Assembly: GCA_030679895.1 (NCBI GenBank)
Contig: JAUXSN010000003.1
Coordinates: 5,517-69,516 of the forward strand
DNA length: 64,000 nucleotides
Direction: 5' to 3'
Source of the DNA: Candidatus Moraniibacteriota bacterium
GTDB lineage: Bacteria; Patescibacteriota; Minisyncoccia; Moranbacterales; UBA11712
Shown here: positions 1,843 to 63,771 of the stretch, piece by piece
How the letters are laid out: every line of letters begins with the position of its first letter
How positions within the stretch are numbered: position 1 is the stretch's first letter
Made by a program: the position numbers and the translations under genes
The notes under the pieces: model-generated
Database searches by the model: none
What the model saw: only the letters and a program-made list of their open reading frames with translations
Told to the model about the DNA's origin: nothing

Positions 1843-1853
1843 ATTTTGGCGTC

Positions 1854-4055: not shown

Positions 4056-4065
4056 CGAATAATAC

Positions 4066-6141: not shown

Positions 6142-6158
6142 ATCAGCGTGGGAAAAAT

Positions 6159-8515: not shown

Positions 8516-8524
8516 ACTGGTTTT

Positions 8525-9481
8525 TTATTGGACGATTAGTTCCCCGTCCCCAAACTCTTGATAATATTTTTCGAAAATGCCCGGACAAAAATCTTTTTTC
8601 GAGCACCTCAGGCATTTGTCCGGTTTCATGACTCCTTTCAGGGGCTTGAACCCTTCGGTCTCGGCCAAAACGGTCCTTTTGTCCCTTCTAATTTTTTTGA
8701 GGGTGATTTGAAAATGCCATTTAGTGTCACTGGAGCGATCTTTAAGCTCTCCTAGGACACAAACCGGCAAACCGAAAAATTTTATTTTTCGGGATTTTTT
8801 TGCAACCAGTCTCGCGAGTAATGGAATTTTTTTTCTTATTTCGCCCAAAGGCACGACCAGATTCCGATAATTTTCCAGCGCCCGGCCTTCCGGAGCCAGA
8901 CCGGAAAACAATATTTTTTTCACTCTCTTATATCGACTGATAAAATCAATTATTCGGGTGAGTTTGGAAAAGTTATGTTTCGTTATCAAAATCCTCGCTG
9001 AAATTTTTGTTTCTGCCGGAATTTTTTCGACATTTTCCAAAGACTTTTTCAGTATGGAGAAACTTTTTCCGTTTCGAGTATGAAGGTTGTGCAGCCTGTC
9101 GATATGTCCGTAGATTGAGAAAGACAAATAGTCGATATGCGGCATAATTTTTCGGCAAAAATTTTCCTCGGAAAATCTTCCGCCGTCAGAATTGACGAAA
9201 ACCTGATAGCGCAATCTCTTGGCAAGTTTTGCTATTTCCACAATGTCGGGATGCAAAGTCGGCTCCCCGCCGGTGAGAACCAAAAAATTGAAACCCGCTT
9301 TCGCCCGTTTTTTTATCTCCCTTTCCACTTCCGCTTTCGCGACAAACTGGCCCTTGAAGTCTTCCAGCAGATCCTTTTCTCCGCAAAAAATGCAATTGTT
9401 GCGGCAAGAAGAGGAAATATAAAATTCCAGGCGTTTGATTTCGCTGTTTCTTTCTTCAATATTTCGTATATTTTTTTTCAT
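8525..9481 (-). CDS. radical SAM protein with C-terminal Cys cluster
   Basis: 318 aa; CRNNCIFCGE, TGGEPTLHP, C-terminal CLRCSKKDFCPG. Confidence 0.75.
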   Translation of the reverse strand: MKKNIRNIEERNSEIKRLEFYISSSCRNNCIFCGEKDLLEDFKGQFVAKAEVEREIKKRAKAGFNFLVLTGGEPTLHPDIVEIAKLAKRLRYQVFVNSDGGRFSEENFCRKIMPHIDYLSFSIYGHIDRLHNLHTRNGKSFSILKKSLENVEKIPAETKISARILITKHNFSKLTRIIDFISRYKRVKKILFSGLAPEGRALENYRNLVVPLGEIRKKIPLLARLVAKKSRKIKFFGLPVCVLGELKDRSSDTKWHFQITLKKIRRDKRTVLAETEGFKPLKGVMKPDKCLRCSKKDFCPGIFEKYYQEFGDGELIVQ

Positions 9482-10878
9482 TTCTTTCTTTCGTTATTTT
9501 TTTCGATCATTTTTTTCCTAATATCATTTTCACTAAAAAAGAACATGCAAGCGGCAAAGCGATCAATCGGTTCCTCCGGGAAAAAAACCCGATCTCCTTG
9601 GAATCTTATCTTCCCTATTTTTTTCAAGCCGTTTATTCCGTCGGCAAAAATTTCTTTGAAATCCGCTCCGAAATGCTTCGCGAAACCTTTTCGAGAAAAG
9701 CACCGCTCATGAGATAGTTTTTGCAGGATAAAGTTTCTCATCTCCCCCCGCTCGCCCAGCCTGACAGCTTTGTAGTCAAGACTATTTGAGTTGAAATTGA
9801 AATTGTCTCTCCCGTCTTTTGTGTAGTAATATTGCAAATCCTTGAAAATATAGGCGTTTGCCCGGCTACCGAGCGCGAAAAGGGACTGAGAACTTGAAGG
9901 GGAAGGCGAGAAATTATACACGTTTCCCAAAATTTTTTTATTCTTGAGCAAAAATTTATATCCGATAGAGTCATAGACCACGAATTTTGACTCAATCATT
10001 TCATAATTATGCTTATCCGCTTCGGCCTTAAACTGTTTTTTAATTTTCCTGAACTTTTCGCTTATTTTTTTTCTCTCCCGGCTCTGAAAACTTTCCGAGC
10101 GGAGCCCAAAATAGCCATTCGGGGGACGAAAACGATAGACGATTATCGAATCCGGCCGTAAGTCGGCCAGGCCGGAAAAACTGCTCAGAATCGAACTAGC
10201 ATCGTCTCCTCGCAAGCCGACCATCAAATCAACGTTTATTTCAAATTTCAATTTTCGGGCGCTTTGGATCACCTCTTTTATCTTGGAAAACTCTTGATAT
10301 CCGCGCAAAGCGGAGTTTAGCACATTTTTGTCCAAACTTTGAACGCCGAAGCTGATTCTGTTGAAGCCGAAATCTTTTATTATTTTCAGCTTTTTTTTAT
10401 CAATGCTTTCTGGGTTTCCTTCAAAAGTTTTTTCTCCCCGTTTCTCGAAACTGAAATACTTTTTCAGATTTCCCACGAGTTCCATGAGTTGTTTTTCCGA
10501 CAAAATAGACGGAGTTCCTCCGCCGATATATAGATTGTCTATTTTTTTACTCTTAAAAACTTCTCGGAAAAAAGAAATTTGTTTTTTTAAATTTTTCAAA
10601 TAACTTTCAATCTCCCTGTCGACCGGAACTTTCGAAAAATACGGGCAATAATTGCATTTGGATCGGCAAAATGGAATATGAACATAAAAATTCAAGATTT
10701 CTTTCGAACTCTCTTTTGAATCCAGATGGATATTCCAATGATTCCTTATCTGTCCGGCGCTCAGGACGCATTCTTCTCCGAACCAGCGGATAAGATCCGT
10801 CAGAAAAAAATTGTCATAAAAAGACTTATGATTCGATAAAAAAAATTTGTATGAATTGTATCTTTCCTGAGAGTTCAT
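9478..10878 (-). CDS. HemN-like radical SAM protein (paralog of 6159..7577)
   Basis: 466 aa; CRSKCNYCPY, GGGTPS; 4-nt overlap with downstream gene. Confidence 0.7.
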   Translation of the reverse strand: MNSQERYNSYKFFLSNHKSFYDNFFLTDLIRWFGEECVLSAGQIRNHWNIHLDSKESSKEILNFYVHIPFCRSKCNYCPYFSKVPVDREIESYLKNLKKQISFFREVFKSKKIDNLYIGGGTPSILSEKQLMELVGNLKKYFSFEKRGEKTFEGNPESIDKKKLKIIKDFGFNRISFGVQSLDKNVLNSALRGYQEFSKIKEVIQSARKLKFEINVDLMVGLRGDDASSILSSFSGLADLRPDSIIVYRFRPPNGYFGLRSESFQSRERKKISEKFRKIKKQFKAEADKHNYEMIESKFVVYDSIGYKFLLKNKKILGNVYNFSPSPSSSQSLFALGSRANAYIFKDLQYYYTKDGRDNFNFNSNSLDYKAVRLGERGEMRNFILQKLSHERCFSRKGFAKHFGADFKEIFADGINGLKKIGKIRFQGDRVFFPEEPIDRFAACMFFFSENDIRKKMIEKNNERKK

Positions 10879-10895
10879 GCTGGCAACTTTTTATG

Positions 10896-11792
10896 TCATT
10901 TGAGTCCGACAGCCCTAAATTCTTTCCAGCCAAATTTTTCCGGATATTCCCGCCACGGACCTTCACATATCGCGTTGTGACGGCATTTGGCGCACTGCGG
11001 ACCTTTCATCTTCCCTTCTTTCCGACGAGCTTCGGCGAAATCTTCAACCACCGATTTGAAGTCGTATATTTTGGTCGGCGGAATATATTTTTCTGCCACG
11101 TAGTCTTCATAGCCTTTCATAAAACAAAATGGAATGGCTTCGGTCATCACGACTTTTTTCTTTTTTATGCCGATGTCCAATCCCGCTTTCACATAGGGTT
11201 CCGTCAGAGCCATCCTCGGCACAATGGATTCAAAATTTTCCCCTGCGTTTCCGGTCGCGTGAACAAAAGCGAATTGATATTGATCAACGTCTAAAGAGAC
11301 CAGAAGTTCTGCTATTTCCGGCAAATGCCGGTAATTAGACCTGGTTATCACTGTGTTGGTAATAACTTCCTGACCGAGCAATTTCAGGTTCCTTATCCCC
11401 TGCACCGTTTGCGCGAAACTTCCCCGAGCGGTGGTCAGATAATCATGGAGTTCTCCAATGTGCCCATGCAGAGCTGGTGAAAATTCGGTCGCTCCCGCCC
11501 TGATGGTTTTTTTGCAAAAGTCCGGATAGGAAAACATCCTGCCGTTGCTTTGAATTTGAATTAGTTTAAAACCGATATTTTTCGCAAAGCTTACAAGGCT
11601 GAGAAAGTCAGGTCTTATTGTCGGCTCTCCTCCCGTAAACACAATTCCGTCGCACTCGGCTACGGCTTCTTTCATTTCTTTTTTTATTTGCTTAATATCC
11701 TTATCTTTGAATTGGATCCTTTTTCTCCCCTGCACGCAAAAAAGGCAATGGTTGTTGCAAGAAAATCCAACTTTTAGATCCGCTTTTTTCAT
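10896..11792 (-). CDS. radical SAM protein with C-terminal Cys cluster
   Basis: 298 aa; CNNHCLFCVQ, TGGEPTIRP, C-terminal CAKCRHNAICEGPW. Confidence 0.75.
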   Translation of the reverse strand: MKKADLKVGFSCNNHCLFCVQGRKRIQFKDKDIKQIKKEMKEAVAECDGIVFTGGEPTIRPDFLSLVSFAKNIGFKLIQIQSNGRMFSYPDFCKKTIRAGATEFSPALHGHIGELHDYLTTARGSFAQTVQGIRNLKLLGQEVITNTVITRSNYRHLPEIAELLVSLDVDQYQFAFVHATGNAGENFESIVPRMALTEPYVKAGLDIGIKKKKVVMTEAIPFCFMKGYEDYVAEKYIPPTKIYDFKSVVEDFAEARRKEGKMKGPQCAKCRHNAICEGPWREYPEKFGWKEFRAVGLK

Positions 11793-12700
11793 AAAGATGA
11801 AATTTTATCCACAAAATCGCTAAGAGCCCTGTCGACTTTCCTCGTGGAATCCAAAATCTGCCTAGAAAAGGTTCTTTTGAAAAGAAAATCGAAATCGAAC
11901 TCCAGGGGAAACTGAACAATGCTTTTCCAGTCATTCGTGTTTTGAATATTACCTAATTTCAATTCTTTCCGCCAGCCCGAAAAGCGCTTGTCCAGAAAAA
12001 AATTTCCGAAATACACATCCCCTTCGGGATCAATAACCGGGGACATATTAAACAAAGGCACGGGCGAAAATGATTTAATATTTTTTACCTGGATGCCGTC
12101 TGGATGGGATTTTATTTCCTTCTCAATGACTTTGAAATTGTCACGGAGAGAACTTATGCTTTTTTCGGACCAATCCGTATAATAAGCCGGCAAAAAATTG
12201 AATCGCCTAAATCCTTTTTTTCTTAGTTCCGAAAAAAGATCTTTTGACTGCCTCATGTTGTCCGGCAAAAGATTGATATTGACCGTCATGAGCGGAAGGC
12301 GTGATATGTTTTTTATGAATTCATCGTCATCGAATATTTTTGAGTAACTGGAACTTATGATAATTTCAAAATTTGGAAATTTTTTGAGATAGTCTGCGAT
12401 TTTTTTGTCGAGAAGCAATCCATTCGTCGTGAGATTGAAATCCGCTTTTTTCGCTTTTTTTCCTAATCGCGCCACGAGTCCCTTTACCAAACCGAAATTG
12501 AGAAGCGGCTCCCCCCCAAAAAAACGAATAAGAGGCCTCACGGAACGATTATTTTTCCCCTCTAAAAACAAAGAAGCAGCCCTTGAAGCCGTTTCTAAGT
12601 TCATGCTTCTATTTGTTTTTCTTACCTGGCAATGACTGCAATTCAGATTGCACTTTAGGGTTGTCACCAAAACCAAACTTTGATCATCGAGTTTCGACAT
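11789..12700 (-). CDS. radical SAM protein
   Basis: 303 aa; CNLNCSHCQV, FGGEPLLN; resembles second domain of the fused double rSAMs; 4-nt overlap (ATGA) with downstream gene. Confidence 0.7.
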   Translation of the reverse strand: MSKLDDQSLVLVTTLKCNLNCSHCQVRKTNRSMNLETASRAASLFLEGKNNRSVRPLIRFFGGEPLLNFGLVKGLVARLGKKAKKADFNLTTNGLLLDKKIADYLKKFPNFEIIISSSYSKIFDDDEFIKNISRLPLMTVNINLLPDNMRQSKDLFSELRKKGFRRFNFLPAYYTDWSEKSISSLRDNFKVIEKEIKSHPDGIQVKNIKSFSPVPLFNMSPVIDPEGDVYFGNFFLDKRFSGWRKELKLGNIQNTNDWKSIVQFPLEFDFDFLFKRTFSRQILDSTRKVDRALSDFVDKISSL

Positions 12701-12781
12701 TGATAGCTGAAAAATAATTGATGCAGAATTTTTTTTCTTATTTTTTTATTTTCGGAAATTATTCAGCCAAGGATCTGGATA

Positions 12782-13063
12782 TTACCAGCTGCCGTGAGAA
12801 CCATGCGATCCGTGAGCTCCGTGCGATCCGTGCGATCCGTGCGATCCGTGAGATCCGTGAGATCCGTGAGAAGCATGGGCACAAGTCGCATTGGCCAGTT
12901 TCTCATTCGGCTTCATTATCCCTGCCAGAACTGCGGCGCTGGCGACCACCACCATTCCGATTTTCATCACGCTTTCCTTGCTAATATTCCCTTCTTCGCT
13001 GGTCAAGAAGGCCTGGATGTTCTTTTTTATCTTAGGTATCCTTGTTTTTTTTGATTCACTCAT
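12782..13063 (-). CDS. His-Gly-Ser (His-Xaa-Ser-type) repeat precursor peptide; probable true start at internal ATG (12967) with signal-peptide-like N-terminus
   Basis: ORF ends ...ANATCAHASHGSHGSHGSHGSHGSHGAHGSHGSHGSW; internal ATG (MKIGMVVVASAAVLAGIM..., 61 aa) is preceded by AAGGAAAG 5 nt upstream, the 13063 start has no SD; sits in middle of rSAM operon. HxsA (His-Xaa-Ser repeat protein) analogy from recollection of TIGRFAMs Hxs system. Confidence 0.6.
   Translation of the reverse strand: MSESKKTRIPKIKKNIQAFLTSEEGNISKESVMKIGMVVVASAAVLAGIMKPNEKLANATCAHASHGSHGSHGSHGSHGSHGAHGSHGSHGSW
12803..12872. repeat. 9-bp tandem repeat (cgtgcgatc/cgtgagatc, ~8 units) encoding the HGS repeats
   Basis: Direct reading: catgcgatccgtgagctccgtgcgatccgtgcgatccgtgcgatccgtgagatccgtgagatccgtgagaagc. 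Confidence 0.9.
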
Positions 13064-13088
13064 AAATTAAGATTAGATCTTAAAAATT

Positions 13089-14099
13089 TTATTTTGCTCC
13101 GGTAGCTTCGAAAAGCAGTTGGAGACGGTCTAGATTATAATAATCGTCGCATTTTTCCTCGCTGAAGTTCAACATTTTCCGACAGTCGAAATTAGGATCA
13201 AAATATAGCTTATAAACGCTATAATAGTCGCGGTGGGAAATTTCTTCCAGTATCGCCGGATTATTGTCTCTCACAGTTCTCGCAAAATAAGCAAGCTGAA
13301 AACATTTATACCAAAGGTCTTCTCCCACTCCACCCTGCTCGACCGATCCCCCTTGCGAAGCCCTGGGAAGATTTTTCATGACGTCGCAGGCCGCATAATC
13401 TCTCTTGTTTATGGCAAGGCACAATGCCTGAGTCAAGGAACCTTTGGGAAAACTCGCGCAATCGCTCTCTGATTTACTCATGACCAACGATTGGCACAGA
13501 TTTTGGCAATCATCCTCTCCTGAATTTTTGCAAGCCTGGACAAATTCGACCGAGCAATTTCCTGCTTTCATGCTTGGTAATATACTTTCGAGATACAGCT
13601 TGACCCTGTATTCACAATGCGACAATACCATCGGATCCGGAATACTTTTGCAGTATCCGATATTCTTTTCCTTTATGGCAGAGCAAATTAGAAAATTTTC
13701 TGTTTTGAACGGATTTATTCTAAACATTTCGGAGGCCAGGAGAATAATATCTTTTGTTTCTTTTCCGGAAAGACCTTCAAGCCTTTTCTTGCAAGCGTCT
13801 CTCTCCGCCCAAAAATAGGTTTCCACTTCCTGCCGGCTTTTCCCCTTCAATTTTTCTGTTTCGAAAGAAACATCTGCCTGACTTTTTTGCTCATATGGCG
13901 AAGGTTCCATGATCTCGGCGGGAACAGCCAAGAGCGCTTTTTTATTTTGAGAAGGAATATCCTCTATTGTTTTATGCGGAATATTTTGAGAGTCGTTGCT
14001 AAAAAATAAATATTTTACTCCCAAAAACAACCCGGCCAAAACCAGCAAGACAACGAATGCGATTAATACTTCCTTTAGTTTTTTATTTTCGATTACCAT
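13089..14099 (-). CDS. membrane-anchored Cys-rich protein of unknown function (cluster-associated)
   Basis: 336 aa; N-terminal TM helix (LIAFVVLLVLAGLFLGV), >20 Cys in extracytoplasmic part; between precursor and rSAM/SPASM gene. Confidence 0.5.
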   Translation of the reverse strand: MVIENKKLKEVLIAFVVLLVLAGLFLGVKYLFFSNDSQNIPHKTIEDIPSQNKKALLAVPAEIMEPSPYEQKSQADVSFETEKLKGKSRQEVETYFWAERDACKKRLEGLSGKETKDIILLASEMFRINPFKTENFLICSAIKEKNIGYCKSIPDPMVLSHCEYRVKLYLESILPSMKAGNCSVEFVQACKNSGEDDCQNLCQSLVMSKSESDCASFPKGSLTQALCLAINKRDYAACDVMKNLPRASQGGSVEQGGVGEDLWYKCFQLAYFARTVRDNNPAILEEISHRDYYSVYKLYFDPNFDCRKMLNFSEEKCDDYYNLDRLQLLFEATGAK

Positions 14100-14185
14100 T
14101 TTGATTATTTATATCATAAATTACAAACCTAGAAAAGACAATAAACAGCAAAGTGCTTCGGCGTTCGTATTTTTTGAAAAAGGTA

Positions 14186-15688
14186 TCAGTCCGGTATTTT
14201 CTGATAATTTTTTTTACTGCACTCTATTTCTTTTTTTGCCCATTTTTCAAGGATCTTTTTCTTCTTTTTGTCTTTCAAGTAGCTGAAAATCAGGTCAAAA
14301 ATAGATTTGTTTATTATGCATCTCAGGCTGTTGGGCTGTTGGCAAAAAACATTTCCGGTTTCAGCAAAGTTGTGGATGGGACAAATTCCGCAATAAGGCT
14401 GATAAACGCAGTGCGAACAGCCCGCCTGGCAACTTGTCTCCGAGGCTACACACATGCTCTTCAGGGCCGGGCTGTCGATGATTTCCGAATAAACGTTTTG
14501 GGCGACGGTTCCCAGTCTAAACATTTCTTGCCCTGAGTAGCCCATCATTCTGCCTTCATCGCAAGTATAAATATCACCATTGAAATCATAGGCAAGTTGT
14601 CCGATCCCGGCTCCGCAAGGAGAACGGAGCTCCAGATAATTCGGATCGTCATCCGTCAAAATCTTTGAAACAACAATTGAGGCCGTCCTTTCATAAAATC
14701 TTTTTCCCGACTGGTTGATTTCCAAAATATAATCCAGAGCTTTTTTATAGAAATCAAGATATTCTTGAGGCTTATATCCCATCTTTGACCAAGCTTTTCC
14801 GGCTGTTCCCAACGGGCTCAAGGGACGGAGAAATATAGTATCAAAACCCCATTTTAAATATTCATCCACTATTTCTTTCGGGTGCTCAAGAGAGAATCGA
14901 CTCACCGTAACGAGTGCTCCGGGCTGAAAAAAATAATATTTCCCTCTAATTTTCTTCCGCTCAATCCTCCGGTATTCATCCATGGCTTGCTTCAGCCATT
15001 TTGTCGTTTCCTCATAGCTGTTTTTGCGGGGAAGCGGGCGATTTCTGTTATGAATAGCTTCCGGACCGTCGAGCGAGGTGCAAAGCGCCACGTGATTTCT
15101 GAAGAAAAAACGCAGTTTCTCCTTGTCCATCAGGGAAAAATTGGAAACGAGTCGGAGCTCCAGGCTTTTTTTCTCGATTTTATTTTTTTCTTTGGCATAT
15201 TCAACAATAAACTTGACTATCGGCCAATTAAGAAGAGGCTCCCCTCCCTGAAACTCAATGGCGACGTTGTTATTCGGCGTGCTGAAAATAAAATCGACTA
15301 CTTGCTTAGCCGTTCCAAGGCTCATGTCAAATTGGGAGCTAGTCACTCCTTTCGCACTAGCCTGGCAGTAAACACAGCTGTAATTGCAGCGCAGCGTCAC
15401 AACAACGATATGAAGACTCGGCCCTCCAAAAAGATTCTGGTGTTTTTTTTGGTATTTTTCAATGTATTTGTCAAAATTTATTTTGTCGCGGATGAAATTT
15501 TTTTTCGCCAATTCTTTGTAGGACGCACTTTTTGAGCTGATTTTTCCCTCGATGAATTTTCCAAAATTATTTTCGTCCAAAAAAGCGTATTCTCCCGCAT
15601 CATTCGTGAGAAGATATTCTTTTCCCAACTTTCTATAACGGAAAAAGCCTACTGTTGAGTGATCTATCTTATCCGGATTGAATTTCAT
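14186..15688 (-). CDS. radical SAM/SPASM-domain peptide maturase (HxsB/HxsC-like)
   Basis: 500 aa; CNYSCVYCQA rSAM motif, FQGGEPLLN, SPASM-type C-terminal clusters CGAGIGQLAYDFNGDIYTCDEG and CQAGCSHCVYQPYCGICP; ~90 aa N-terminal extension. Confidence 0.8.
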   Translation of the reverse strand: MKFNPDKIDHSTVGFFRYRKLGKEYLLTNDAGEYAFLDENNFGKFIEGKISSKSASYKELAKKNFIRDKINFDKYIEKYQKKHQNLFGGPSLHIVVVTLRCNYSCVYCQASAKGVTSSQFDMSLGTAKQVVDFIFSTPNNNVAIEFQGGEPLLNWPIVKFIVEYAKEKNKIEKKSLELRLVSNFSLMDKEKLRFFFRNHVALCTSLDGPEAIHNRNRPLPRKNSYEETTKWLKQAMDEYRRIERKKIRGKYYFFQPGALVTVSRFSLEHPKEIVDEYLKWGFDTIFLRPLSPLGTAGKAWSKMGYKPQEYLDFYKKALDYILEINQSGKRFYERTASIVVSKILTDDDPNYLELRSPCGAGIGQLAYDFNGDIYTCDEGRMMGYSGQEMFRLGTVAQNVYSEIIDSPALKSMCVASETSCQAGCSHCVYQPYCGICPIHNFAETGNVFCQQPNSLRCIINKSIFDLIFSYLKDKKKKKILEKWAKKEIECSKKNYQKIPD

Positions 15689-17520: not shown

Positions 17521-17734
17521 TTTTTTGTATTACTTTTACCTCTTGCAATTATTATACCATATCCAAAAACAAGCACAATGCTCCCGATGAGCCCTTTCAA
17601 AAATCGGGGAATGTGATATTATGAAACAAGCGCAAAGTGTAAAATGCAAAGCTAAAAACCACAGCGAAAAACCAAAAGTTTTTAGCTTTAAGTTTTGGTT
17701 TTGCACTTTGAGCTTTTAGTTTTGAATTCGACAT

Positions 17735-18241
17735 ATGCCACACAAAAAAATCATAATTTCCATCAGTATCTTGCTATCTTCGTTGATCGCCAAGTCAGCG
17801 CTTGCCGTCTGTCCCGTCTGCACCATTGCCGTTGGTGCGGGATTGGGTCTGGCTCAATGGTTGGGAATCGACGACTCTGTCTCCGGCCTTTGGATCGGCG
17901 CTTTGATCGTTTCGATGTCAATTTGGACAGTCAACTGGCTAAATGGCAAAAATATCAAGTTTAAAGGCCGAAAGATCCTCATTTTTGCGGCGTATTATAT
18001 CATCGTTGTCATCCCTCTTTATTGGAAAGGCATGATAGGACATCCACTCAACAGACTTTGCGGAATTGATAAATTGCTTTTTGGAATAATTTTGGGAACT
18101 ATTCTGTTTTCTGCGGGAGTTTTGTTTCACAACTATATTCGAAAAAGAAACGGCGATATTTCATATTTCAAAGGTCAGAAAATAGTTTTTGGCATCGCGC
18201 CACTCGTGATTGCCAGTATAATTTTATATTTCACTTGTTAA
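17735..18241 (+). CDS. integral membrane protein, unknown function
   Basis: 168 aa with 4 predicted hydrophobic helices. Confidence 0.5.
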   Translation: MPHKKIIISISILLSSLIAKSALAVCPVCTIAVGAGLGLAQWLGIDDSVSGLWIGALIVSMSIWTVNWLNGKNIKFKGRKILIFAAYYIIVVIPLYWKGMIGHPLNRLCGIDKLLFGIILGTILFSAGVLFHNYIRKRNGDISYFKGQKIVFGIAPLVIASIILYFTC

Positions 18242-25981: not shown

Positions 25982-26923
25982 TCAAGGGCGGTTGTGGAAA
26001 ACCGATGCCGCCGCGCCCAAAAGCGGCGCATTTTCGCCTAAAGCGGTGATTTCTAGCTTTGGCAATCGCAAGAATTTATCTATATTTTTTTTCGCATATT
26101 TAAGCGCTAAATCACCGTTATTCAGCGCCACCGCCCCACCCAAAACAATGATTTCCGGATCATAGGCCGCGACGACATTTGATATCCCCCGCCCGTTGAT
26201 TTTTCCCAGTTCTTCCATGAATTGCAGGGCAACTTTATCTTTTTTCCGCGCCGCGTCGAAAATATCTTTCGCCGCACTTGGAAACTTAGTTTCCAAGTGA
26301 TTTTTTTTCGTCCAAATTCTGAAAAATTTCGGGATATTGTTTCCCGAAGCGTAAGCTTCCCAGTGGCCGCGTCCTTTTCCGCAGGTGCAGGGCAGATTAT
26401 ATTCGGTATCAACTGTCATATGTCCGATTTCCGCCGCATTCCCGTTTTTTCCAAGAAGTAAATTTCCATTGACAATCGCTCCCCCGCCAATTCCGGAAGA
26501 AATTGTGATATAAACCAAATTGGAAAATTTCTTTCCCGCGCCAAAATATTTTTCTCCCAGCGCGCCCGCATTGCAATCATTTATGAAAAGAATTGGCAAT
26601 CCAAATGCTTTTTTAAGCGGCTCTATGATCGGAATAAACTTATACTTAATATTCGGCGTATTCACAATAGCGCCTTTTTTAAAGTCAATTGGACCAACTG
26701 CGCTCACTCCGATTCCTTTGAATTTTTTGATGCCATATCCGCTGATTAATTTCTTTATCTCATCGATCACTTGAATAGTGACAGTATTTCCGCTTTCCCC
26801 TTTTTGAATAGTCTTTGCGGAATTTTTCGCGATTATTTTTCCTTTTTCATCAACAATCGCCGTCCGCATATTCGTCCCGCCGATGTCAATCGCAATCGCC
26901 AAATTATTTGCTTTTTTTGCCAT
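25982..26923 (-). CDS. ROK family glucokinase/sugar kinase
   Basis: Start taken at MAKKANNLAIAIDIGGTNMR (DxGGT); CTCGKGRGHWEAYASG zinc motif; AAEIGHMTVD; upstream part of 362 aa track ORF lacks homology. Confidence 0.8.
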   Translation of the reverse strand: MAKKANNLAIAIDIGGTNMRTAIVDEKGKIIAKNSAKTIQKGESGNTVTIQVIDEIKKLISGYGIKKFKGIGVSAVGPIDFKKGAIVNTPNIKYKFIPIIEPLKKAFGLPILFINDCNAGALGEKYFGAGKKFSNLVYITISSGIGGGAIVNGNLLLGKNGNAAEIGHMTVDTEYNLPCTCGKGRGHWEAYASGNNIPKFFRIWTKKNHLETKFPSAAKDIFDAARKKDKVALQFMEELGKINGRGISNVVAAYDPEIIVLGGAVALNNGDLALKYAKKNIDKFLRLPKLEITALGENAPLLGAAASVFHNRP

Positions 26924-33473: not shown

Positions 33474-33617
33474 TGTCATCCCGGGCTTGACCCGGGATCC
33501 AGAAAATAAAATTTTGTGCAAAGAAACTGGATTCCCGCTTTCGCGGGAATGACACTGCATTTATATTTTTGAGTTTTGCGCTGTGGCTTTGCGCTTTGCA
33601 TTTTGAGTTTTGCGTTT
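33474..33617. repeat. intergenic palindromic element, family B (TGTCATCCCGC cruciform core + gttttgc-repeat arm)
   Basis: tgtcatcccgggcttgacccgggatccag...ctggattcccgctttcgcgggaatgaca then gagttttgcgctgtggctttgcgctttgcattttgagttttgcg; copies also at 44003-44148, 55010-55119, 59041-59262. Confidence 0.8.
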
Positions 33618-34650
33618 ATTTTAATTTAGTTTGCCCTCTCTTCGTCATTTCAAATTTCAATTCGCCAAATTCCATTGTGCGATCGGGATTGATTGTCACT
33701 TCCACTCCCAGACCTTCCATCGTTTCTTTTTGAAAATACTGGTCGAAGACGAAATTTCCAAGAGAATAATATATTTTTTTGCTGTTGTATTCCTCGCTGT
33801 TTTGAACAACGTGCGGGTGTGTGCCGATGATTGCGTCCGCGCCGGCATCGATGAACCGGTAGGCGAGAGCGCGAACCGCTTCTCCCGGATCGCCCGTTTT
33901 GTATTCCGTCCCCCAATGCGGGCAGACGATAACGATATCCGACTGCTCTTTCGCCGATTTGATGTCTTCGATCGCCGCTTCAATCGAATCCGTGACGGAA
34001 TAGTTATAACTCACAAACTCAATTCTCATTCCTTCAATTTCTTTCTCCCTACTTGGAAACTTAGTTTCCAAGTCGCCTATATTTCCGAAGTACTCCACTC
34101 CCGCTTCATCCAGATATTTTTTCGTCTGCTCGACACCCTTCGCGCCTTGATTGAGAATATGATTGTTGCCCAAATTAATTAGTTTTATATTATTCTCCGC
34201 GAGAGTCTTTGCCACTGCTGGATCAAAAGTGAAAACAAAATTCTTGCTTTCGCCAATTTTTGTATTTACACTGATTGACTTGTTTTCCGTTATCGGCCCT
34301 TCGAGGTTGCCCACGACAAGATCATATTCGGACAATTTTTCTTTCAGCGACTCGAGAGCGTAGTTGTAGTCGCCGCTGCCATATTTCCCCACCGCCTCCC
34401 GAATATGCCGGTCAAACATCATATCCCCGATGAATAGAATTTTGATGGGTTTGTTATCGTTTATGTTATTTTCCGGCGCTGGCTTGTTTTCGCTTCTTAA
34501 ATCAACCGCGCTTTGCATCGAGGAAATGCTTTTTTGCTCCTGCGCTTTCTCTTCTTTTGCTTGCTTTCTCAAATCAACATTTTGCGCACAACCCGCTAAA
34601 AATAGCACGCTAAGAAATAAAAAAGTAATTTTAAATTTTACATTTTGCAT
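33616..34650 (-). CDS. CapA/PgsA family metallophosphatase-like protein (poly-gamma-glutamate capsule synthesis family), lipoprotein
   Basis: 344 aa; signal FLAGC; ILFIGDMMFDR, GNHILNQG, VCPHWGTEY, IIGTHPHVVQ; contains in-frame palindromic insert encoding LETKFPS. Confidence 0.75.
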   Translation of the reverse strand: MQNVKFKITFLFLSVLFLAGCAQNVDLRKQAKEEKAQEQKSISSMQSAVDLRSENKPAPENNINDNKPIKILFIGDMMFDRHIREAVGKYGSGDYNYALESLKEKLSEYDLVVGNLEGPITENKSISVNTKIGESKNFVFTFDPAVAKTLAENNIKLINLGNNHILNQGAKGVEQTKKYLDEAGVEYFGNIGDLETKFPSREKEIEGMRIEFVSYNYSVTDSIEAAIEDIKSAKEQSDIVIVCPHWGTEYKTGDPGEAVRALAYRFIDAGADAIIGTHPHVVQNSEEYNSKKIYYSLGNFVFDQYFQKETMEGLGVEVTINPDRTMEFGELKFEMTKRGQTKLK

Positions 34651-44002: not shown

Positions 44003-44148
44003 AAAGCGCAAAACCATATTTTGTCATCCCGCGCTTGATGCGGGATCCAGTTTCTGCAAGTAGAATTATATTTTCTGGATCCCCGCTGGAGTTTATCCTC
44101 GTGAAAACGGGGACGGGGATGACACTCAAAAAAATGTGAGTTTTGCAT
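44003..44148. repeat. intergenic palindromic element, family B
   Basis: caaagcgcaaaacc...tgtcatcccgcgcttgatgcgggatccag...ctggatccccgctggagtttatcctcgtgaaaacggggacggggatgaca...gtgagttttgcat; right half identical to copy at 59153-59202. Confidence 0.8.
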
Positions 44149-44149
44149 A

Positions 44150-44869
44150 TCATCTTATTTCTATCTTCTCAAAATATTTCTCGATATTTTTCGCTATTTT
44201 TTCGAGATCCAGCCTTTTCCCTTTTGTTTTTTTCTTGAGATTCGGATCGAGTATTTTCCCCTTGTCTTCAAAAGCTTGCAGGACATATTTTTTCGCGCCT
44301 TCGAGCCACTTCCCGATTTTGGAAAAATCGCCTTCGGAATGCAAACCGGGCACGGCAGTTGTGCGAAATTCATAGTCAACACCGCTGTTTCGTATCAAAT
44401 CCACGCTCAACTTAATACGCTCTACATCCACTTCGCTATTCGTCGTGGAATTGTATCTTTCCGGGCTGTTTTTGATGTCCATCGCTACAAAATCAAGCAG
44501 CTTGCCTGCCGATGAGGCAGGTTTCTCCGAAAATAGCCGCCTCAATATGTCCGGGCGGGCGCCGTTTGTGTCAAGCTTCACTTTATAGCCTATGCTTTTT
44601 ATTTTCTTTATAAAATCAACAATATCCGGCTGAAGAGTCGGCTCACCCCCGGTGATGCAAACTCCTTCGATTTTTCCTTTTCTCGTTTCTAAAAATTTAA
44701 AAAAATCTTCTTCCAATATATTGGAAATTGGAAATTGGAAATTGGAAATTGCCAACTCGGGGTTGTGGCAAAACGGGCAGCGGAAATTACATCCCACCGT
44801 GAAAACAGTCGCGGCAATATGGCCGGGATAGTCAATGAGCGTCAGTTTTTGTAAACCGCCGAGAATCAT
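44150..44869 (-). CDS. nrdG: anaerobic ribonucleoside-triphosphate reductase activating protein
   Basis: 239 aa; CNFRCPFCHNPEL rSAM motif, ITGGEPTLQPD; adjacent to nrdD; contains 4x ggaaatt tandem 7-mer (ISNFQFPISN). Confidence 0.8.
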   Translation of the reverse strand: MILGGLQKLTLIDYPGHIAATVFTVGCNFRCPFCHNPELAISNFQFPISNILEEDFFKFLETRKGKIEGVCITGGEPTLQPDIVDFIKKIKSIGYKVKLDTNGARPDILRRLFSEKPASSAGKLLDFVAMDIKNSPERYNSTTNSEVDVERIKLSVDLIRNSGVDYEFRTTAVPGLHSEGDFSKIGKWLEGAKKYVLQAFEDKGKILDPNLKKKTKGKRLDLEKIAKNIEKYFEKIEIR

Positions 44870-49252: not shown

Positions 49253-49378
49253 AGCAAAGAAAAAATCTCTACGGATTACCAATCAATTACGAATATACGA
49301 ATGAATTATTTTTCGCGTATTTGCAAGAATTTTCATTGATTCGTATATTCGTACGAAATTCGTAATTCGTAGAGATTC
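49253..49378. repeat. long imperfect inverted repeat in ftsA-ftsZ intergenic region
   Basis: aatctctacggattaccaatcaattacgaatatacgaatgaa ... ttcattgattcgtatattcgtacgaaattcgtaattcgtagagatt. Confidence 0.6.
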
Positions 49379-52261: not shown

Positions 52262-52291
52262 AGGTAACCTCCCTTCTAAAAAAAATTTCAA

Positions 52292-52425
52292 TTTCTAATT
52301 TTCAATTTCTAAACAATGTTTTAATTTCTCAATTTTTCAATGACAAATTGTTTGAAAATTCGGTCATTGAAGCATTGAAAATTGTTTGAAAATTGAAAAT
52401 TGAAAATTATAATCTAAAAAACATC
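52292..52425. repeat. intergenic palindromic element, family C (aattttc/gaaaatt 7-mer arms with caatgac/gtcattg boxes)
   Basis: tttcaatttctaattttcaatttctaaacaatg...caatgacaaa...ggtcattgaag...gaaaattgaaaattgaaaatt. Confidence 0.8.
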
Positions 52426-52861: not shown

Positions 52862-54238
52862 TCATTGATTTCTTACCACCGTTCCTCCCATCTTCAGCCT
52901 TTTTTTCACTTCGTCAATCAGCTTATCGCCATTAATAATTTCCTGGTTGCCGCTGGCCATATCTTTTATTATCACCGTTCCGTCCAAAGCTTCCTTTTGG
53001 CCCAGAATCAGGGTGATTTCCACCCTTAGGCGGTCAGCCACTTTGAGCTGCGACTTGAGGCTCCCCCGTCCGAAACTTTCAGCTACCATTATGCCCGCCC
53101 GTTCAAGAGATTCAAACATGCGCAGGCTTTTTTTCTTGGCAAAAATTCCGAGTTGCGCGAGAAAAACCCGGGGCTTTTGCTGTTTATATTGTCTTGCCCC
53201 TATTTTTTTCATTTCGAGAACAAGCCGATCCAATCCCAGGCTGAAACCGACCGCCGGCGTATCTTCGCCTCCCATAAGCTTCACGAGGCCGTCATATCTC
53301 CCGCCTCCGCCCAAGGCGCTCTTCTTTTTTTCTTCCGCTCCGGCTTGAGGAAAAAATTCAAAGACCGTCCGGGTATAATAATCCAGGCCTCTCACCAGCG
53401 TCGGATCAAGCTCAAAGGGAATTTCCAGCTCCTCGAGATATTCCAAAAGTTCCTTGAAATGAACCCGGCACTCGTCGCAAAGATGGTCGATCGATTGAGG
53501 AGCGTTCATTCTGACTTGCACGCACTTGTCTTCCTTGCAATCAAGAATGCGAAGCGGATTTTTTTCCAACCGCCGCTTGCAGTCAATGCAAAGTTTTTGC
53601 TTTTTCGATTCGAAATAGGAAACCAGAAGATTCCGATAGCTTTTTCGGCAGGACGGGCAGCCGATGCTGTTGACATTGACGGAAACGTTTCTTATGCCCA
53701 GCTGATGGATGATCCGCCAGCCCATTTGAATGATCTGAACATCGATTATCGGATCATCTTCTCCCAGCGCTTCGCAGCCGAACTGAAAAAATTCCCTAAA
53801 TCTTCCCTCTTGGGGACGATCATAGCGATAGCAGGGGCCGGTATAGTATAGTTTTACCGGTTTGGGAGCGACGTGAAGGCCATGCTGAATATAGGCCCGG
53901 GCGATGCCGGCCGTGAATTCCGGCCGCAGGGAAACTTTTTCCCCGCCCTTGGTATTGAAAGAGTACATTTCCTTTTCTATAATATCCGTGCCGGAGCCGA
54001 TACCGCGCGCGAACAGATTTGAAAATTCAACCAAGGGAAGATCAATCCGCCGATAGCCGAAATCAGCCGCCGCCTTTTCGGAAATTTTGCGGACTTGCTG
54101 CCAATAGGGCTGATCCGCAGGCAAAATATCGCGCATCCCGCGCGGAGGCTGGAGAACAAGCTCCTCGACTGGCTCGACGCTTTTTGGCTTCTTAGCTTTT
54201 TTCAAAGTTTTTTTATTAAGCATAAATTTAATTTTCAA
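52862..54238 (-). CDS. hisS: histidine--tRNA ligase
   Basis: 458 aa class II aaRS; MRDILP..., LRPEFTAGIARAY, GGGRYDGL. Confidence 0.85.
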   Translation of the reverse strand: MKIKFMLNKKTLKKAKKPKSVEPVEELVLQPPRGMRDILPADQPYWQQVRKISEKAAADFGYRRIDLPLVEFSNLFARGIGSGTDIIEKEMYSFNTKGGEKVSLRPEFTAGIARAYIQHGLHVAPKPVKLYYTGPCYRYDRPQEGRFREFFQFGCEALGEDDPIIDVQIIQMGWRIIHQLGIRNVSVNVNSIGCPSCRKSYRNLLVSYFESKKQKLCIDCKRRLEKNPLRILDCKEDKCVQVRMNAPQSIDHLCDECRVHFKELLEYLEELEIPFELDPTLVRGLDYYTRTVFEFFPQAGAEEKKKSALGGGGRYDGLVKLMGGEDTPAVGFSLGLDRLVLEMKKIGARQYKQQKPRVFLAQLGIFAKKKSLRMFESLERAGIMVAESFGRGSLKSQLKVADRLRVEITLILGQKEALDGTVIIKDMASGNQEIINGDKLIDEVKKRLKMGGTVVRNQ

Positions 54239-54239
54239 T

Positions 54240-54360
54240 TTCTAATTTTCAATTTTCAAACAATGACTCAATTTCCCAATGTCTAAATGAATTTGTTTTA
54301 AAAATTGAATCATTTGGTCATTGGAAATTGTTTAGAAATTAAAAATTGGAAATTAAAAAT
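54240..54360. repeat. intergenic palindromic element, family C
   Basis: aattttcaatttctaattttcaattttcaaacaatgac...ggtcattggaaattgtttagaaattaaaaattggaaattaaaaatt. Confidence 0.8.
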
Positions 54361-54361
54361 T

Positions 54362-55009: not shown

Positions 55010-55119
55010 CTCACTAAATTGTCATCCCGCACTTGCCTGTCCGCCTCTGGAGGAATGCGGGATCCAGAAAATCTACATTGTTCATACGCACTAAAAAAAC
55101 GCTAGATTCCCGCTTCCGC
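55010..55119. repeat. intergenic palindromic element, family B core
   Basis: tgtcatcccgcacttgcc...ggaggaatgcgggatccag...ctagattcccgcttccgcgggaatgaca. Confidence 0.8.
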
Positions 55120-55178
55120 GGGAATGACAAAAAGGATATTCCGCGATTCCGTTTGCATAATAGCAGAAAAAAAGGCAT

Positions 55179-56938: not shown

Positions 56939-57499
56939 ATGAAAACAATGTTAATCGCCGGGCTCGGCAATCCGGGAAAAGAATATGCGCGTACCCGCCA
57001 CAACGCCGGGTTTATGTTTGTGGATTATTTTTGGGAAGAAAATCGGGAAAATTTTTCCGAGTGGGAGTTCAGCAAAAAATTGAATTCAGAAATTTGTTTT
57101 GGAAAATTCGAAGGAAAAAAAATAATTCTCCTGAAGCCGCAAACTTTTATGAATCTCTCGGGCGAGGCGATCGCGGCGGCACTCAAATATTACAAAATCC
57201 CCTGTCGAGGTGAAACCTCGACAAACTTGATTGTCGCACATGACGAGATTGATTTGCCGCTTGGGACATTTCGCGTTTCCCAAAACGCTTCTTCCGCCGG
57301 CCACCAGGGCGTCCAGAATATAATCGACCTCTTGGGAACGAAAGATTTTACGCGGCTTCGGATTGGGGTTGATAGCAGAAAAGGCAAAAAGATCGCAACG
57401 GAAAAATATGTGCTGGGGAAATTTACAATTATTGAACTGCGCACTATTAAAGATGTTTTAAAAAAATCCACTGATGAACTAATTAAAGATCTTTCTTAA
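56939..57499 (+). CDS. pth: peptidyl-tRNA hydrolase
   Basis: 186 aa; MLIAGLGNPGKEYARTRHNAGF, LIVAHDEIDLPLG. Confidence 0.85.
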   Translation: MKTMLIAGLGNPGKEYARTRHNAGFMFVDYFWEENRENFSEWEFSKKLNSEICFGKFEGKKIILLKPQTFMNLSGEAIAAALKYYKIPCRGETSTNLIVAHDEIDLPLGTFRVSQNASSAGHQGVQNIIDLLGTKDFTRLRIGVDSRKGKKIATEKYVLGKFTIIELRTIKDVLKKSTDELIKDLS

Positions 57500-57524
57500 T
57501 TTTCAATTATCAATTTCTAATTTC

Positions 57525-57629
57525 CAAACAATTTTCAATGTCACAATGACAAAATTTTCAAACTTTATTTCATTGAAAATTGAAGAATTGGAGCATTAAT
57601 TGAAAATTGAAAATTAGAAATTGAAAATT
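57525..57629. repeat. family C palindromic element; near-identical inverted copy of 61595..61700
   Basis: caaacaattttcaatgtcacaatgacaaaattttcaaactttatttcattgaaaattgaagaattggagcattaattgaaaattgaaaattagaaattgaaaatt vs reverse complement of 61595-61700 (about 100/105 identical). Confidence 0.85.
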
Positions 57630-57917
57630 ATTTAGCGCATAGATTTAGAAAAAACAAAAAAGCCGTAAAAGGCTTTTCGCTTGAATTATCGCTAAAGTTA
57701 ACACAACATGTCCTCTGTCCCACCTAAAAGTGCTGGAATCGCCTACATTTGCAGGCTATCCAAACTTATCGACGATGTTTAAGGAGGGGTCACACCGCCA
57801 GACTTCCAGGCGGGACAAAAGACACGAAAAATGGCTATTTATTTGTTAATACGCTGGAAAACAGCGAATATTGCCTTATATTAAAGCCGATTATACATTA
57901 TAGCAGAATATAAAGAT

Positions 57918-59039
57918 TTGTCAATGTCCAATATGCGAGATAACGAACTGATCTATTGGAACGCTTTTGCCGGAGTCGGCGGATTTGGGCCGCAGAGTTT
58001 CAAAAAACTGCTGGCATTCTTTGGCGACCTGGAAACAGCCTGGAAAGCCGGACGGGAGGAATTGATCGGAACCGGCATCGGCGAAAAAAAAGTTGAAAAT
58101 TTGTTGTCCGAGCGCGGGAAAATTTCTCCCGAAAAATTTTTTGAAGATGTTTTGAAAGAACAGATTGAGATCATCACTATCAATAGCGCCGTTTATTCGC
58201 CCCGGCTCAAAGAAATTCCCTCCGCCCCGGCGGTTCTCTATGGCCGGGGAGATCTCAAAATCTTGAACAATAAATCGCTCGCCGTGGTTGGTTCGCGAAA
58301 ATTCACGTCATACGGCGAACGCTCGACCCAAAGCCTTTGCCGCGATCTGGTCCGGGCGGGACTCACCATCACGAGCGGTTTGGCTCTCGGCATTGACGCC
58401 ATCGCCCACCGAGCGACTTTGGAAGCCGGCGGGAAAACCATTGCAGTTCTGGGAACCGGCATCGATGACGCGACCATTTATCCCCGGGAGAATTTCAATT
58501 TGGCAAAAAATATTATTGAAAGCGGCGGGGCGCTCCTGACGGAATATCCTCCGAAAACCCCCTCTCTCAAGCAAAATTTTCCCGCCCGCAACCGGATTAT
58601 GGCCGGACTCTCTCTCGGAACGCTTGTTATCGAAGCCGCCGAGGGAAGCGGATCGCTCATCACCGCCGGATACGCCCTTGAATTCGACCGCGAAGTTTTG
58701 GCCGTCCCCGGAGATATTTTTTCTCCCCAGTCCACCGGCGCCAACGCGCTCATCAAAAACGGAGCCAAGCTCGTCCAGTCGGCCAACGACATTCTGGAAG
58801 AATTGAACGTAAAAACAAGCGGACGGCAAACGCTTCTTTTTGAAGAGCAAAAAAATTACGATCCGAAAACAAGCGAAGAAAAAATTCTCTGGAAAATTCT
58901 TTCCCACGAGCCCCTTCACATTGACAGGATCTCAAAAATGACTAAACTGGACGCAGCAGCCGTGAACGGAACGCTTTCCCTGATGGAAGTCGAAGGCGCG
59001 GTAAAAAACGTGGGAGGGCAGAACTATATCAAGTTATAA
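57918..59039 (+). CDS. dprA: DNA processing protein DprA (Smf)
   Basis: 373 aa; SLAVVGSRKFTSYG, GLALGIDAIAHRATLEAGGKTIAVLGTGID Rossmann-like core. Confidence 0.85.
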   Translation: MSMSNMRDNELIYWNAFAGVGGFGPQSFKKLLAFFGDLETAWKAGREELIGTGIGEKKVENLLSERGKISPEKFFEDVLKEQIEIITINSAVYSPRLKEIPSAPAVLYGRGDLKILNNKSLAVVGSRKFTSYGERSTQSLCRDLVRAGLTITSGLALGIDAIAHRATLEAGGKTIAVLGTGIDDATIYPRENFNLAKNIIESGGALLTEYPPKTPSLKQNFPARNRIMAGLSLGTLVIEAAEGSGSLITAGYALEFDREVLAVPGDIFSPQSTGANALIKNGAKLVQSANDILEELNVKTSGRQTLLFEEQKNYDPKTSEEKILWKILSHEPLHIDRISKMTKLDAAAVNGTLSLMEVEGAVKNVGGQNYIKL

Positions 59040-59040
59040 G

Positions 59041-59262
59041 CGCAAAACTCAAAGCTAAAAACGCAAAACCACAACTCAAAACTAAAAACTTTATTTTGTC
59101 ATCCCGCACTTGATGCGGGATCCAGAAAAAATACAACATTATCGCGCAGAAACTGGATCCCCGCTGGAGTTTATCCTCGTGAAAACGGGGACGGGGATGA
59201 CAGTATCGTGAGTTTTGAGCTTTACGCTGTGGTTTTGCACTTTGCACTTTGCGCTTTGAACT
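59041..59262. repeat. composite palindromic element: caaaac-type arm + family B core + gttttg-type arm
   Basis: caaaactcaaagctaaaaacgcaaaaccacaactcaaaac...tgtcatcccgcacttgatgcgggatccag...ctggatccccgctggagtttatcctcgtgaaaacggggacggggatgaca...gagttttgagctttacgctgtggttttgcactttgcactttgcgctttg. Confidence 0.85.
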
Positions 59263-59268
59263 AAATTT

Positions 59269-61596: not shown

Positions 61597-61700
61597 TTTT
61601 CAATTTCTAATTTTCAATTTTCAAAAAATGCTCCAATTCTTCAATTTTCAATGAAACAAAGTTTGAAAATTTTGTCATTGTGACATTGAAAATTGTTTGT
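61595..61700. repeat. family C palindromic element (inverted partner of 57525..57629) followed by (taaattg)x4
   Basis: aattttcaatttctaattttcaattttcaaaaaatgctccaattcttcaattttcaatgaaacaaagtttgaaaattttgtcattgtgacattgaaaattgtttg. Confidence 0.85.
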
Positions 61701-61731
61701 AAATTGTAAATTGTAAATTGTAAATTTCCGC

Positions 61732-63231: not shown

Positions 63232-63317
63232 TATCTTTTAATTTCGAATTTCCAATTTTCCTTTTTTAGCTCAAAACTCAAAGCTCAAAACGCAAAACCA
63301 CAGAGCAAAATTCAAAA

Positions 63318-63716: not shown

Positions 63717-63771
63717 ATTGAAAATTCAGTCATTTGAAATTGTTTGAAAATTAGAAATTGAAAATTGAAAA

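Follow-up and report, generated by a model that had tools for sequence, protein, structure and literature searches.

Introduction

What are the four GC-rich palindromic elements that lie between the genes of a 64,000-nucleotide stretch of DNA from a Moranbacteria lineage (this whole stretch, as analysed here, is referred to as the window), and how might they have come to be there? The initial annotation described them as a family of paired hairpins bracketed by degenerate 'gttttgc' arms, compared them with REP/BIME and Correia elements, and offered terminators, small RNAs and mobile MITE-like units as possible roles. Their host is a member of the candidate phyla radiation (CPR), bacteria with small genomes that are thought to depend on DNA uptake.

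A possible precedent comes from Neisseria, where the 28-nt Neisseria Transformation Sequence or NTS (CGTCATTCCCGCGMAVGCGGGAATCYRG) encloses the 20-bp dRS3 repeat and has been generalised as the Ssn-related motif or SRM, with the search pattern HGTCWYN(0-2)YYVSBRHN(0-5)WNVSBRGN(0-2)RNCYNB (Chenal et al., Nat Commun 2025, PMC11893778). The motif is recognised by SsnA, a 94-amino acid GIY-YIG protein (cd10448) that binds the NTS solely as single-stranded DNA and in one orientation, does not bind the RNA form of the motif, cleaves a few nucleotides upstream of it and reduces transformation by DNA that carries the NTS; copies of the motif typically flank the ssnA gene itself, in the arrangement NTS-ssnA-NTS (PMC11893778). 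Cutting of single-stranded DNA only, and of the forward strand only, has been shown for the enzymes of N. meningitidis, N. elongata, N. wadsworthii and Wolbachia, and mutagenesis identified the GTC 5′ of the palindrome and the C just 3′ of it as critical residues (PMC11893778).

We propose that each of the four elements has as its core a convergent SRM doublet that is probably a gene-less derivative of an SRM-ssn-SRM unit, cut by an Ssn protein encoded elsewhere in the genome and spread within the lineage. Judged by sequence, the four cores are paired inverted hairpins of the published NTS/dRS3-type SRM kind, so that the host is new and the element is a known one. The new points are modest, namely the CPR host, the lineage-specific gain, a conserved expanded subtype of the hairpin and the placement of doublets at the apex of other palindromes.

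Anatomy of the Four Cores

The cores, read from the window sequence, occupy positions 33474-33554 (c1, 81 nt), 44022-44124 (c2, 103 nt), 55020-55129 (c3, 110 nt) and 59097-59202 (c4, 106 nt). The four copies initially reported are thus real, but the third, which had been placed at 55010-55119, lies 10 nt higher. Each of the cores lies between genes, as had been stated, with c1, c2 and c4 downstream of genes and c3 between divergent gene starts. In a pattern search the number of chance matches expected for the core pattern was 0.00, and covariance models built from the hairpins of other genomes match all the standard hairpins of the window with E values of 4e-13 to 3e-10, which places the existence of a four-copy family far beyond chance. 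The same foreign-hairpin models (R1 and R2, for the two hairpin types) found no solo SRM copies elsewhere in the 64 kb.

Each core consists of two mutually inverse hairpins, as originally described. The left hairpin has the layout TGTCAT-CCCGC..GCGGG-ATCCAG and the right hairpin is its inverse, CTGGAT-(Y)CCCGC..GCGGG(R)-ATGACA, with an A/T-rich spacer of 24-34 nt separating the two in all four cores. In c1 the left hairpin (33474..33502, plus strand, TGTCATCCCGGGCTTGACCCGGGATCCAG) is an SRM of a CTTGA-loop type by pattern match and scores 50.6 bits (E = 7e-13) with model R1, while the right hairpin (33527..33554, minus strand, TGTCATTCCCGCGAAAGCGGGAATCCAG) is an SRM of a GNRA-tetraloop type that matches both the SRM pattern and, with one mismatch, the NTS, and scores 50.4 bits with model R2. 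The spacer between them (33503..33526, AAAATAAAATTTTGTGCAAAGAAA) shows homology with the spacer of c4 and, in inverted form, with that of c2. Core c2 has a CTTGA-loop left hairpin (44022..44050, plus strand; SRM pattern match, 49.5 bits with R1) and a spacer (44051..44074) that repeat and alignment comparison shows to be inverted relative to those of c1 and c4, with 33494-33535 and 44042-44083 being 79% complementary across the c1 and c2 spacers (inverted repeat I16). Its right hairpin (44075..44124, minus strand) is of an expanded subtype with a nested inner hairpin, GTCATCCCCG-TCCCCGTTTTCACGAGGA-TAAACTCCAG-CGGGGATCCAG.

Core c3 begins with a CTTGA-type stem that carries an expanded loop of 24 nt (55020..55067, plus strand; partial match to R1, E = 0.004), followed by its spacer (55068..55101) and a GNRA-tetraloop right hairpin (55102..55129, minus strand, TGTCATTCCCGCGGAAGCGGGAATCTAG; NTS with two mismatches, 46.7 bits with R2). 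Core c4 combines a left hairpin that matches the SRM pattern (59097..59125, plus strand, TGTCATCCCGCACTTGATGCGGGATCCAG) with a spacer (59126..59152), both this and the c3 spacer being read from the window sequence, and a right hairpin (59153..59202, minus strand) assigned to the expanded subtype by its identity to that of c2. These two expanded hairpins have a loop of 27 nt each; the expanded loop that had been noted in them is real, and the c3 left hairpin has one as well. Overall the c2 and c4 cores are 81% identical, rising to 100% over 50 nt (44075-44124 = 59153-59202). The identity of the right halves had been given as 51 nt and is one position shorter, as 44074 and 59152 differ. Folding, which had been proposed as a check, gave a consistent answer: as single-stranded DNA all four doublets fold better than shuffled sequences, with z values of -2.9 to -5.9.

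The Hairpins Resemble the Neisseria Transformation Sequence

Compared with the Neisseria NTS consensus, the hairpin at 33527-33554 (minus strand) agrees at 27 of 28 positions, the mismatch being the first base, and that at 55102-55129 (minus strand) has two mismatches. The published SRM pattern is matched exactly by four of the eight window hairpins against 0.16 expected; 55102-55129 is outside these four despite its closeness to the NTS, and the three expanded-loop hairpins miss the pattern solely on loop length (more than 5 nt). The residues identified as critical by mutagenesis, GTC 5′ of the palindrome and C just 3′ of it, are conserved in the window, and little or no variation is seen in GTCAT and in the C that follows the palindrome. 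Exact dRS3 sequences (ATTCCC-N8-GGGAAT) are found at 33531-33550 and 55106-55125, inside the right hairpins of c1 and c3; in the remaining six hairpins the stem reads ATCCCG or ATCCCC and departs from the strict dRS3 pattern.

Base pairing in the stems is conserved beyond what the search demanded. The foreign partner hairpins, on which the search pattern had placed no constraint, have stems that are 100% and 98.8% paired in the two hairpin types, with compensatory changes across genomes at 4/8 and 3/8 stem pairs, respectively, and pairing falls to 50% or less in a control in which the partner is slid by one column. The SRM stems are kept through compensatory changes.

Distribution across Genomes

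A scan of species-representative genomes with TGTCATCCCGC-N(3-33)-GCGGGATCCAG returned at least 119 stretches. The matches listed include Rickettsia, Coxiellaceae, Kangiella, Chloroflexi, Rhodothermales, Mediterranea, Nitrospinales and many Patescibacteria, the last comprising three other Moraniibacteriota MAGs together with Uhr-, Buchanan-, Davies-, Harrison-, Peri- and Saccharibacteria. Among the matches listed, the exact 29-mer of the c4 left hairpin is present in 37 loci from many phyla, and 49 doublets are convergent with GTCAT outermost, as in the window; the same hairpins and an outward-facing doublet layout also occur in other Moraniibacteriota. In a viral collection, 25 contigs carry versions with CCCGG stems, often paired. 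When 53 window proteins were searched by tblastn against the pattern-derived loci, no close Moranbacteria relatives were found among them.

The description therefore holds as far as it concerns paired hairpins that are dispersed and resemble REP/BIME and MITE elements, the same hairpins being present in more than 100 genome stretches across many phyla. This distribution rules out a reading of the four copies as a local duplication.

The 8-mer Arms and the Tips of Palindromes

The 'gcaaaac/gttttgc' 8-mer arms had been described as part of the element. They form a distinct palindromic family with its own consensus, which includes CCACAG/CTGTGG, and fall in repeat families D4/D6/D10 and I5-I18. 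Arms flank c4 on its left (59034..59093; D10, I14; not part of the SRM doublet) and right (59211..59265; D4, I14), and a single arm lies beside c1 (33562..33621; D4, I6, I8, I9). If arms and core were one composite element, the 8-mer arms would be the true terminal repeats and the GC core their cargo. Three of the four cores (c1, c2 and c4) do abut arm repeats, at the arm apex, c4 sits symmetrically between two 55-nt arms, and a Moraniibacteriota doublet elsewhere (L136) has an arm on one side. However, c3 has no arms, and arms occur without any core, as the initial annotation had itself observed: repeat search finds a bare arm palindrome at 17624..17737, and the arms at 63263-63317 and 63661-63720 flank a small gene (63318-63716, minus strand) of the PF05635/TIGR02436 family. 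Moreover, whereas the c2 and c4 cores are near-identical, their flanks align poorly and the arms are not near-identical, and doublets in other phyla lack such arms and yet are enriched at the apex of unrelated palindromes. We consider the composite reading improbable. The arms are separable from the cores, and it is therefore the core, not arms plus core, that is the conserved unit.

Enrichment at palindrome tips was seen in a set of 95 distinct doublets from many genomes, of which 11 have complementary flanks (score of at least 9) against 1.3 expected from permuted pairs, the mean flank complementarity lying 6.6 standard deviations above the permutations. We infer, as a statistical tendency, that doublets favour the tips of palindromes already present, where extrusion leaves the DNA single-stranded.

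The PF05635/TIGR02436 gene, of the type annotated 'four helix bundle / 23S rRNA intervening-sequence protein', lies between relA and the next gene. The whole of 63263-63720 is absent from a relative (L001, 88%), which has just a plain GC hairpin terminator there, and it has the look of an inserted cassette with an IVS-like stem.

Other palindromes share these intergenic regions. A second long A/T-rich family, built of 7-mer TTGAAAA repeats, is intergenic at 52277-52414, 54224-54361, 57499-57636, 61589-61726, 63724-63780 and 44721-44764. The spacer between dprA and topA holds the TTGAAAA family in L001, 8-mer arms with an SRM doublet in the window and a third kind in L149; thus different palindrome families occupy the same spacer in related genomes. 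Between ftsZ and ftsA, a 43-nt inverted repeat (49264-49377, I13) has arms that are 84% complementary and 28 nt apart.

Absence of the Elements from Relatives

Copy positions were compared between related genomes. The closest relative with data, GCA_003154175.1, is syntenic with the window and has DprA and ComEC proteins that are 88% and 78% identical, respectively. All four window sites lack the element there: lepB-lytR and dprA-topA (both in L001), the space from the radical-SAM activase to the next gene, 12 nt apart, and that from PGA_cap to the next gene (both in L280). The element is likewise missing from more distant relatives, namely L149, L281 and a JGI contig in which the dprA-topA spacer measures 52 nt, and a covariance model found no SRM in 42.7 kb of the relatives' DNA. 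The lack of the element at every one of the four sites in the closest relative points to lineage-specific insertions. From a separate run, a contig assembled from short reads of the same strain breaks off within c1, as a repeat would lead one to expect. The intergenic flanks have diverged too far for exact empty-site junctions or a target duplication to be defined at the window sites, and the doublets have no upstream target motif beyond an enrichment of T at positions -1 to -3.

These comparisons also bear on the suggestion that the hairpins act mainly as RNA, that is, as intrinsic terminators, attenuators or small RNAs. The intergenic position, the stable GC stems and the location of c1, c2 and c4 downstream of genes would suit such a role, and one hairpin (33550-33531, minus strand) was flagged as terminator-like, with a weak T tail. 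However, seven of the eight hairpins have no T tail and an invariant CCAG follows the stem, c3 lies between divergent gene starts, and the relatives do without hairpins at all four sites, some of their spacers being just 12 nt. At gathering thresholds, Rfam recognised tRNA-Pro alone in the 64-kb window, with no match to the elements, and SsnA did not bind the RNA form of the motif (PMC11893778). A terminator or small-RNA role is accordingly disfavoured, and we regard an RNA-level function of the hairpins as unlikely.

A Conserved, Nested Subtype of the Hairpin

For the expanded hairpins of c2 and c4, metagenomes were scanned with GTCATYCCCRC-N(10-30)-TAAACTCCRGCGGG, which gave at least 120 stretches; the expanded SRM subtype is abundant in CPR metagenomes, with copies in L136, L088, L071 and L154-159. 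Among the matches listed, 33 of 101 expanded copies are in doublets and only four adjoin ssn. The inner hairpin covaries and is often a reverse form of the CTTGA-type hairpin, in other words a hairpin nested in the loop of another, and a TAAACTCCRGC segment is conserved. Since the subtype is widespread and conserved, the 50-nt identity between c2 and c4 is best read as that of a conserved functional variant and not as the chance product of a single recent duplication. The spacers of these two cores, diverged and mutually inverted, are consistent with this, and on such sequence comparison constraint or conversion would fit identical hairpins with diverged, inverted spacers at least as well as recent copying of the whole element.

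Insertions into doublets were also observed. The population variants at one Roizmanbacteria locus differ: in some the SRM doublet is plain (L155, 7072-7159), and in others (L154, 8327-8666; L156, 6835-7159) its spacer is interrupted by about 250 nt of non-coding sequence that has hairpin ends of its own (CCACCGCCTCTGGCGGTG). The loop of the c3 left hairpin contains TCCGCCTCTGGAGGA, which is similar to these hairpin ends.

The Associated ssn Gene

In the fetched loci, open reading frames inside convergent hairpin pairs 300-400 nt apart encode Ssn-like GIY-YIG proteins of 96-98 amino acids, which carry motifs typical of their family. SRM-flanked ssn genes in Patescibacteria are found in a Candidatus Uhrbacteria MAG (L142), in the CPR-type loci L071, L151 and L252 and in Roizmanbacteria (L154-159); the L071 protein has its closest database relatives, with PF01541, annotated as Roizmanbacteria and Patescibacteria. 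The CPR GIY-YIG proteins are homologous to products of SRM-flanked genes in Kangiella and Rickettsia, and their link to N. meningitidis SsnA is through this homology and by family (PF01541, about 95 amino acids, SRM-flanked). Searches for solved Ssn structures returned none, the sole PDB match being a weak one to BH0048, and NCBIfam has no Ssn-specific model.

In L071 and L151 a CTTGA-loop hairpin lies upstream of ssn, followed by a TATAAT box, and a GNRA-tetraloop hairpin lies downstream, whereas the Roizmanbacteria gene has at its 3′ end an expanded hairpin (GTCATTCCCGC, inner hairpin, TAAACTCCGGCGGG). The hairpin types at the two ends of ssn match those that compose the window doublets, the c4 left hairpin being identical to the hairpin at the ssn 5′ end in L071, and the spacer of a Roizmanbacteria doublet (L154) equals an ssn leader fused to an ssn trailer. 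Because of these shared hairpin types and this spacer, we read the window doublets as gene-less SRM-ssn-SRM derivatives. For the Moranbacteria lineage, we infer from this resemblance that they would be MITE-like or REPIN-like forms of such units, to which they may stand, by analogy, as MITEs stand to IS elements or REPINs to RAYT genes.

The window itself contains no ssn or other GIY-YIG gene by a GIY-YIG regular expression, by tblastn with six Ssn proteins or by Pfam. Its roughly 60 genes include, by Pfam, housekeeping genes, ten radical-SAM genes, ComEC, DprA and TopA, and the same scans found no transposase, Y1/RAYT, IS110 or GIY-YIG gene.

The nature of the enclosed gene weighs on the resemblance to REP/BIME-type elements (REPINs), which would be mobilised by a RAYT, an IS200/IS605-like Y1 transposase. 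Paired inverted hairpins that are intergenic and multi-copy fit this architecture. However, REP hairpins are said to carry a GTAG motif, and those of the window, a near-exact match to the NTS, carry GTCAT; no Y1 transposase appeared in the Pfam scans of the window, and in 250 loci every gene that sits inside a short convergent hairpin pair codes for a GIY-YIG Ssn homolog and none for a RAYT. Mobilisation by a RAYT is thus very unlikely, although a parallel with REP elements has been raised in published discussion (PMC11893778). A Correia-like or other MITE, in which a DDE transposase would recognise 29-nt terminal inverted repeats with TG...CA ends, is very improbable: the size of 80-110 nt, the terminal inverted repeats from TG to CA and the presence or absence among relatives would suit it, but the Correia terminal inverted repeat TATAGTGGATTAACAAAAATCAGGACAA is absent from the window even at three mismatches, target-site duplication, including TA, is not seen at the window flanks, none of the fetched loci has a DDE transposase gene between such ends, and each 'terminal repeat' is itself a conserved, covarying hairpin. 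What remains of the initial comparison with REP/BIME or Correia elements is therefore a paired-hairpin, MITE-like family, without the GTAG motif, Y1 transposase or Correia terminal repeat.

The Roizmanbacteria ssn gene (P0125; 10001-10294 in L154) is a single-copy gene at a fixed site beside the triose-phosphate isomerase gene in L154-L159, across many samples, which suggests a resident rather than a hopping gene. Some L154-L159 variants have an IS3-type transposase inserted just upstream of ssn. A GIY-YIG gene of a different, YhbQ-like subfamily lies within a PF05635-like four-helix-bundle gene, the halves of which flank it, at about 1830-2380 of L164.

Proposed Mechanism

Taking the doublets as gene-less SRM-ssn-SRM derivatives, we propose that each hairpin would fold when the DNA is single-stranded, either during replication or during uptake by the ComEC/DprA pathway, ComEC and DprA being encoded in the same window (Pfam). 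A GIY-YIG nuclease of the Ssn family, the gene for which would lie elsewhere in the genome, would then bind the folded hairpin and cut a few nucleotides 5′ of TGTCAT, on that strand only, as does SsnA of N. meningitidis. As a doublet offers one forward motif per strand, each strand would receive a single cut, directly outside the element. Such cutting of opposite strands at the two ends by Ssn does not alone explain excision. Doublets may have spread within the lineage with a preference for the apex of palindromes already in place, the 8-mer arms among them.

A bolder possibility, which we put forward only tentatively and hold to be rather doubtful, is that an Ssn-type nuclease copies the doublets in trans, which would make them non-autonomous mobile elements. 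The nuclease would in that case be a single-strand 'transposase' or homing enzyme of a new kind, with the loops of extruded hairpins as its sites of insertion. The nested subtype (with its inner hairpin and the conserved TAAACTCCRGCGGG), the placement at palindrome apices and the insertions into doublet spacers would then be possible footprints of loop-targeted insertion, and CPR genomes would, if this is true, be a rich natural test bed.

The Ssn/SRM system is extended to CPR bacteria, with four elements in 64 kb gained specifically by this lineage when it is set against a close relative. The conserved, expanded and nested subtype and the doublets at the tips of larger palindromes are missed by the published pattern, and the subtype together with the apex tendency provides clues to how SRM hairpins multiply. 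For annotation, a repeat that would otherwise be labelled REP-like receives a name and a testable partner protein.

Other Features of the Window

A perfect palindrome of 21 nt, CTTGGAAACT(T/A)AGTTTCCAAG, occurs at 26277-26297, 34052-34072, 59850-59870 and 59869-59889 against a chance expectation of 0, inside three protein-coding genes (ROK family, PGA_cap and topA). In TopA and PGA_cap its translation is DLETKFPS, in place of which relatives carry a similar number of unrelated residues, and among 282 loci it was found only in L282, which is of the same strain. A run of ten radical-SAM genes extends over 904-15688, and a small open reading frame (12782-13063) within it contains seven tandem repeats of 9 nt (CCGTGAGAT-like) at 12792-12881; together these are possibly a peptide-modification cluster.

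Comparison with Known Systems

Correia elements resemble the window doublets in being intergenic, about 100 nt long and bounded by terminal inverted repeats, but the two share no sequence similarity, the TA duplication is missing, and the ends of the doublets fold into hairpins by themselves. REP/BIME elements and the REPIN-RAYT system share with them the hairpin doublets, the single-copy gene flanked by the same hairpins, the recognition of hairpins in single-stranded DNA and the many non-autonomous copies. They differ in that an HUH/Y1 transposase and GTAG operate there, whereas a GIY-YIG nuclease and GTCAT belong to Ssn, and Ssn has been shown to cut, not to transpose.

In the NIME organisation of Neisseria, segments are reportedly bracketed by inverted dRS3-type repeats. 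The window doublets likewise hold short variable segments between inverted repeats of dRS3 type, and two of their hairpins contain the exact dRS3, as defined for Neisseria (PMC11893778). In contrast, the other six hairpins fail the strict dRS3 pattern, the spacers of 24-34 nt are much shorter, and no IS110/Piv-type recombinase or filamentous prophage is seen in the window.

The closest counterpart is the NTS/SRM-SsnA system. It differs from the present case in its hosts, the main text of the published study making no mention of CPR bacteria or Patescibacteria (PMC11893778), whereas the host here is a CPR bacterium; in addition, no ssn gene lies within these 64 kb, three window hairpins are expanded or nested and unmatched by the published loop of at most 5 nt, and every window hairpin belongs to a tight heterotypic doublet. 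Common to both are a near-identical hairpin sequence (27 of 28 positions for 33527-33554), the flanks (T/C)GTCAT and ATC-CAG that give the motif its orientation, covarying stems, an intergenic and multi-copy distribution and, in other Patescibacteria, ssn genes encoding proteins of about 95 amino acids in the SRM-ssn-SRM layout.
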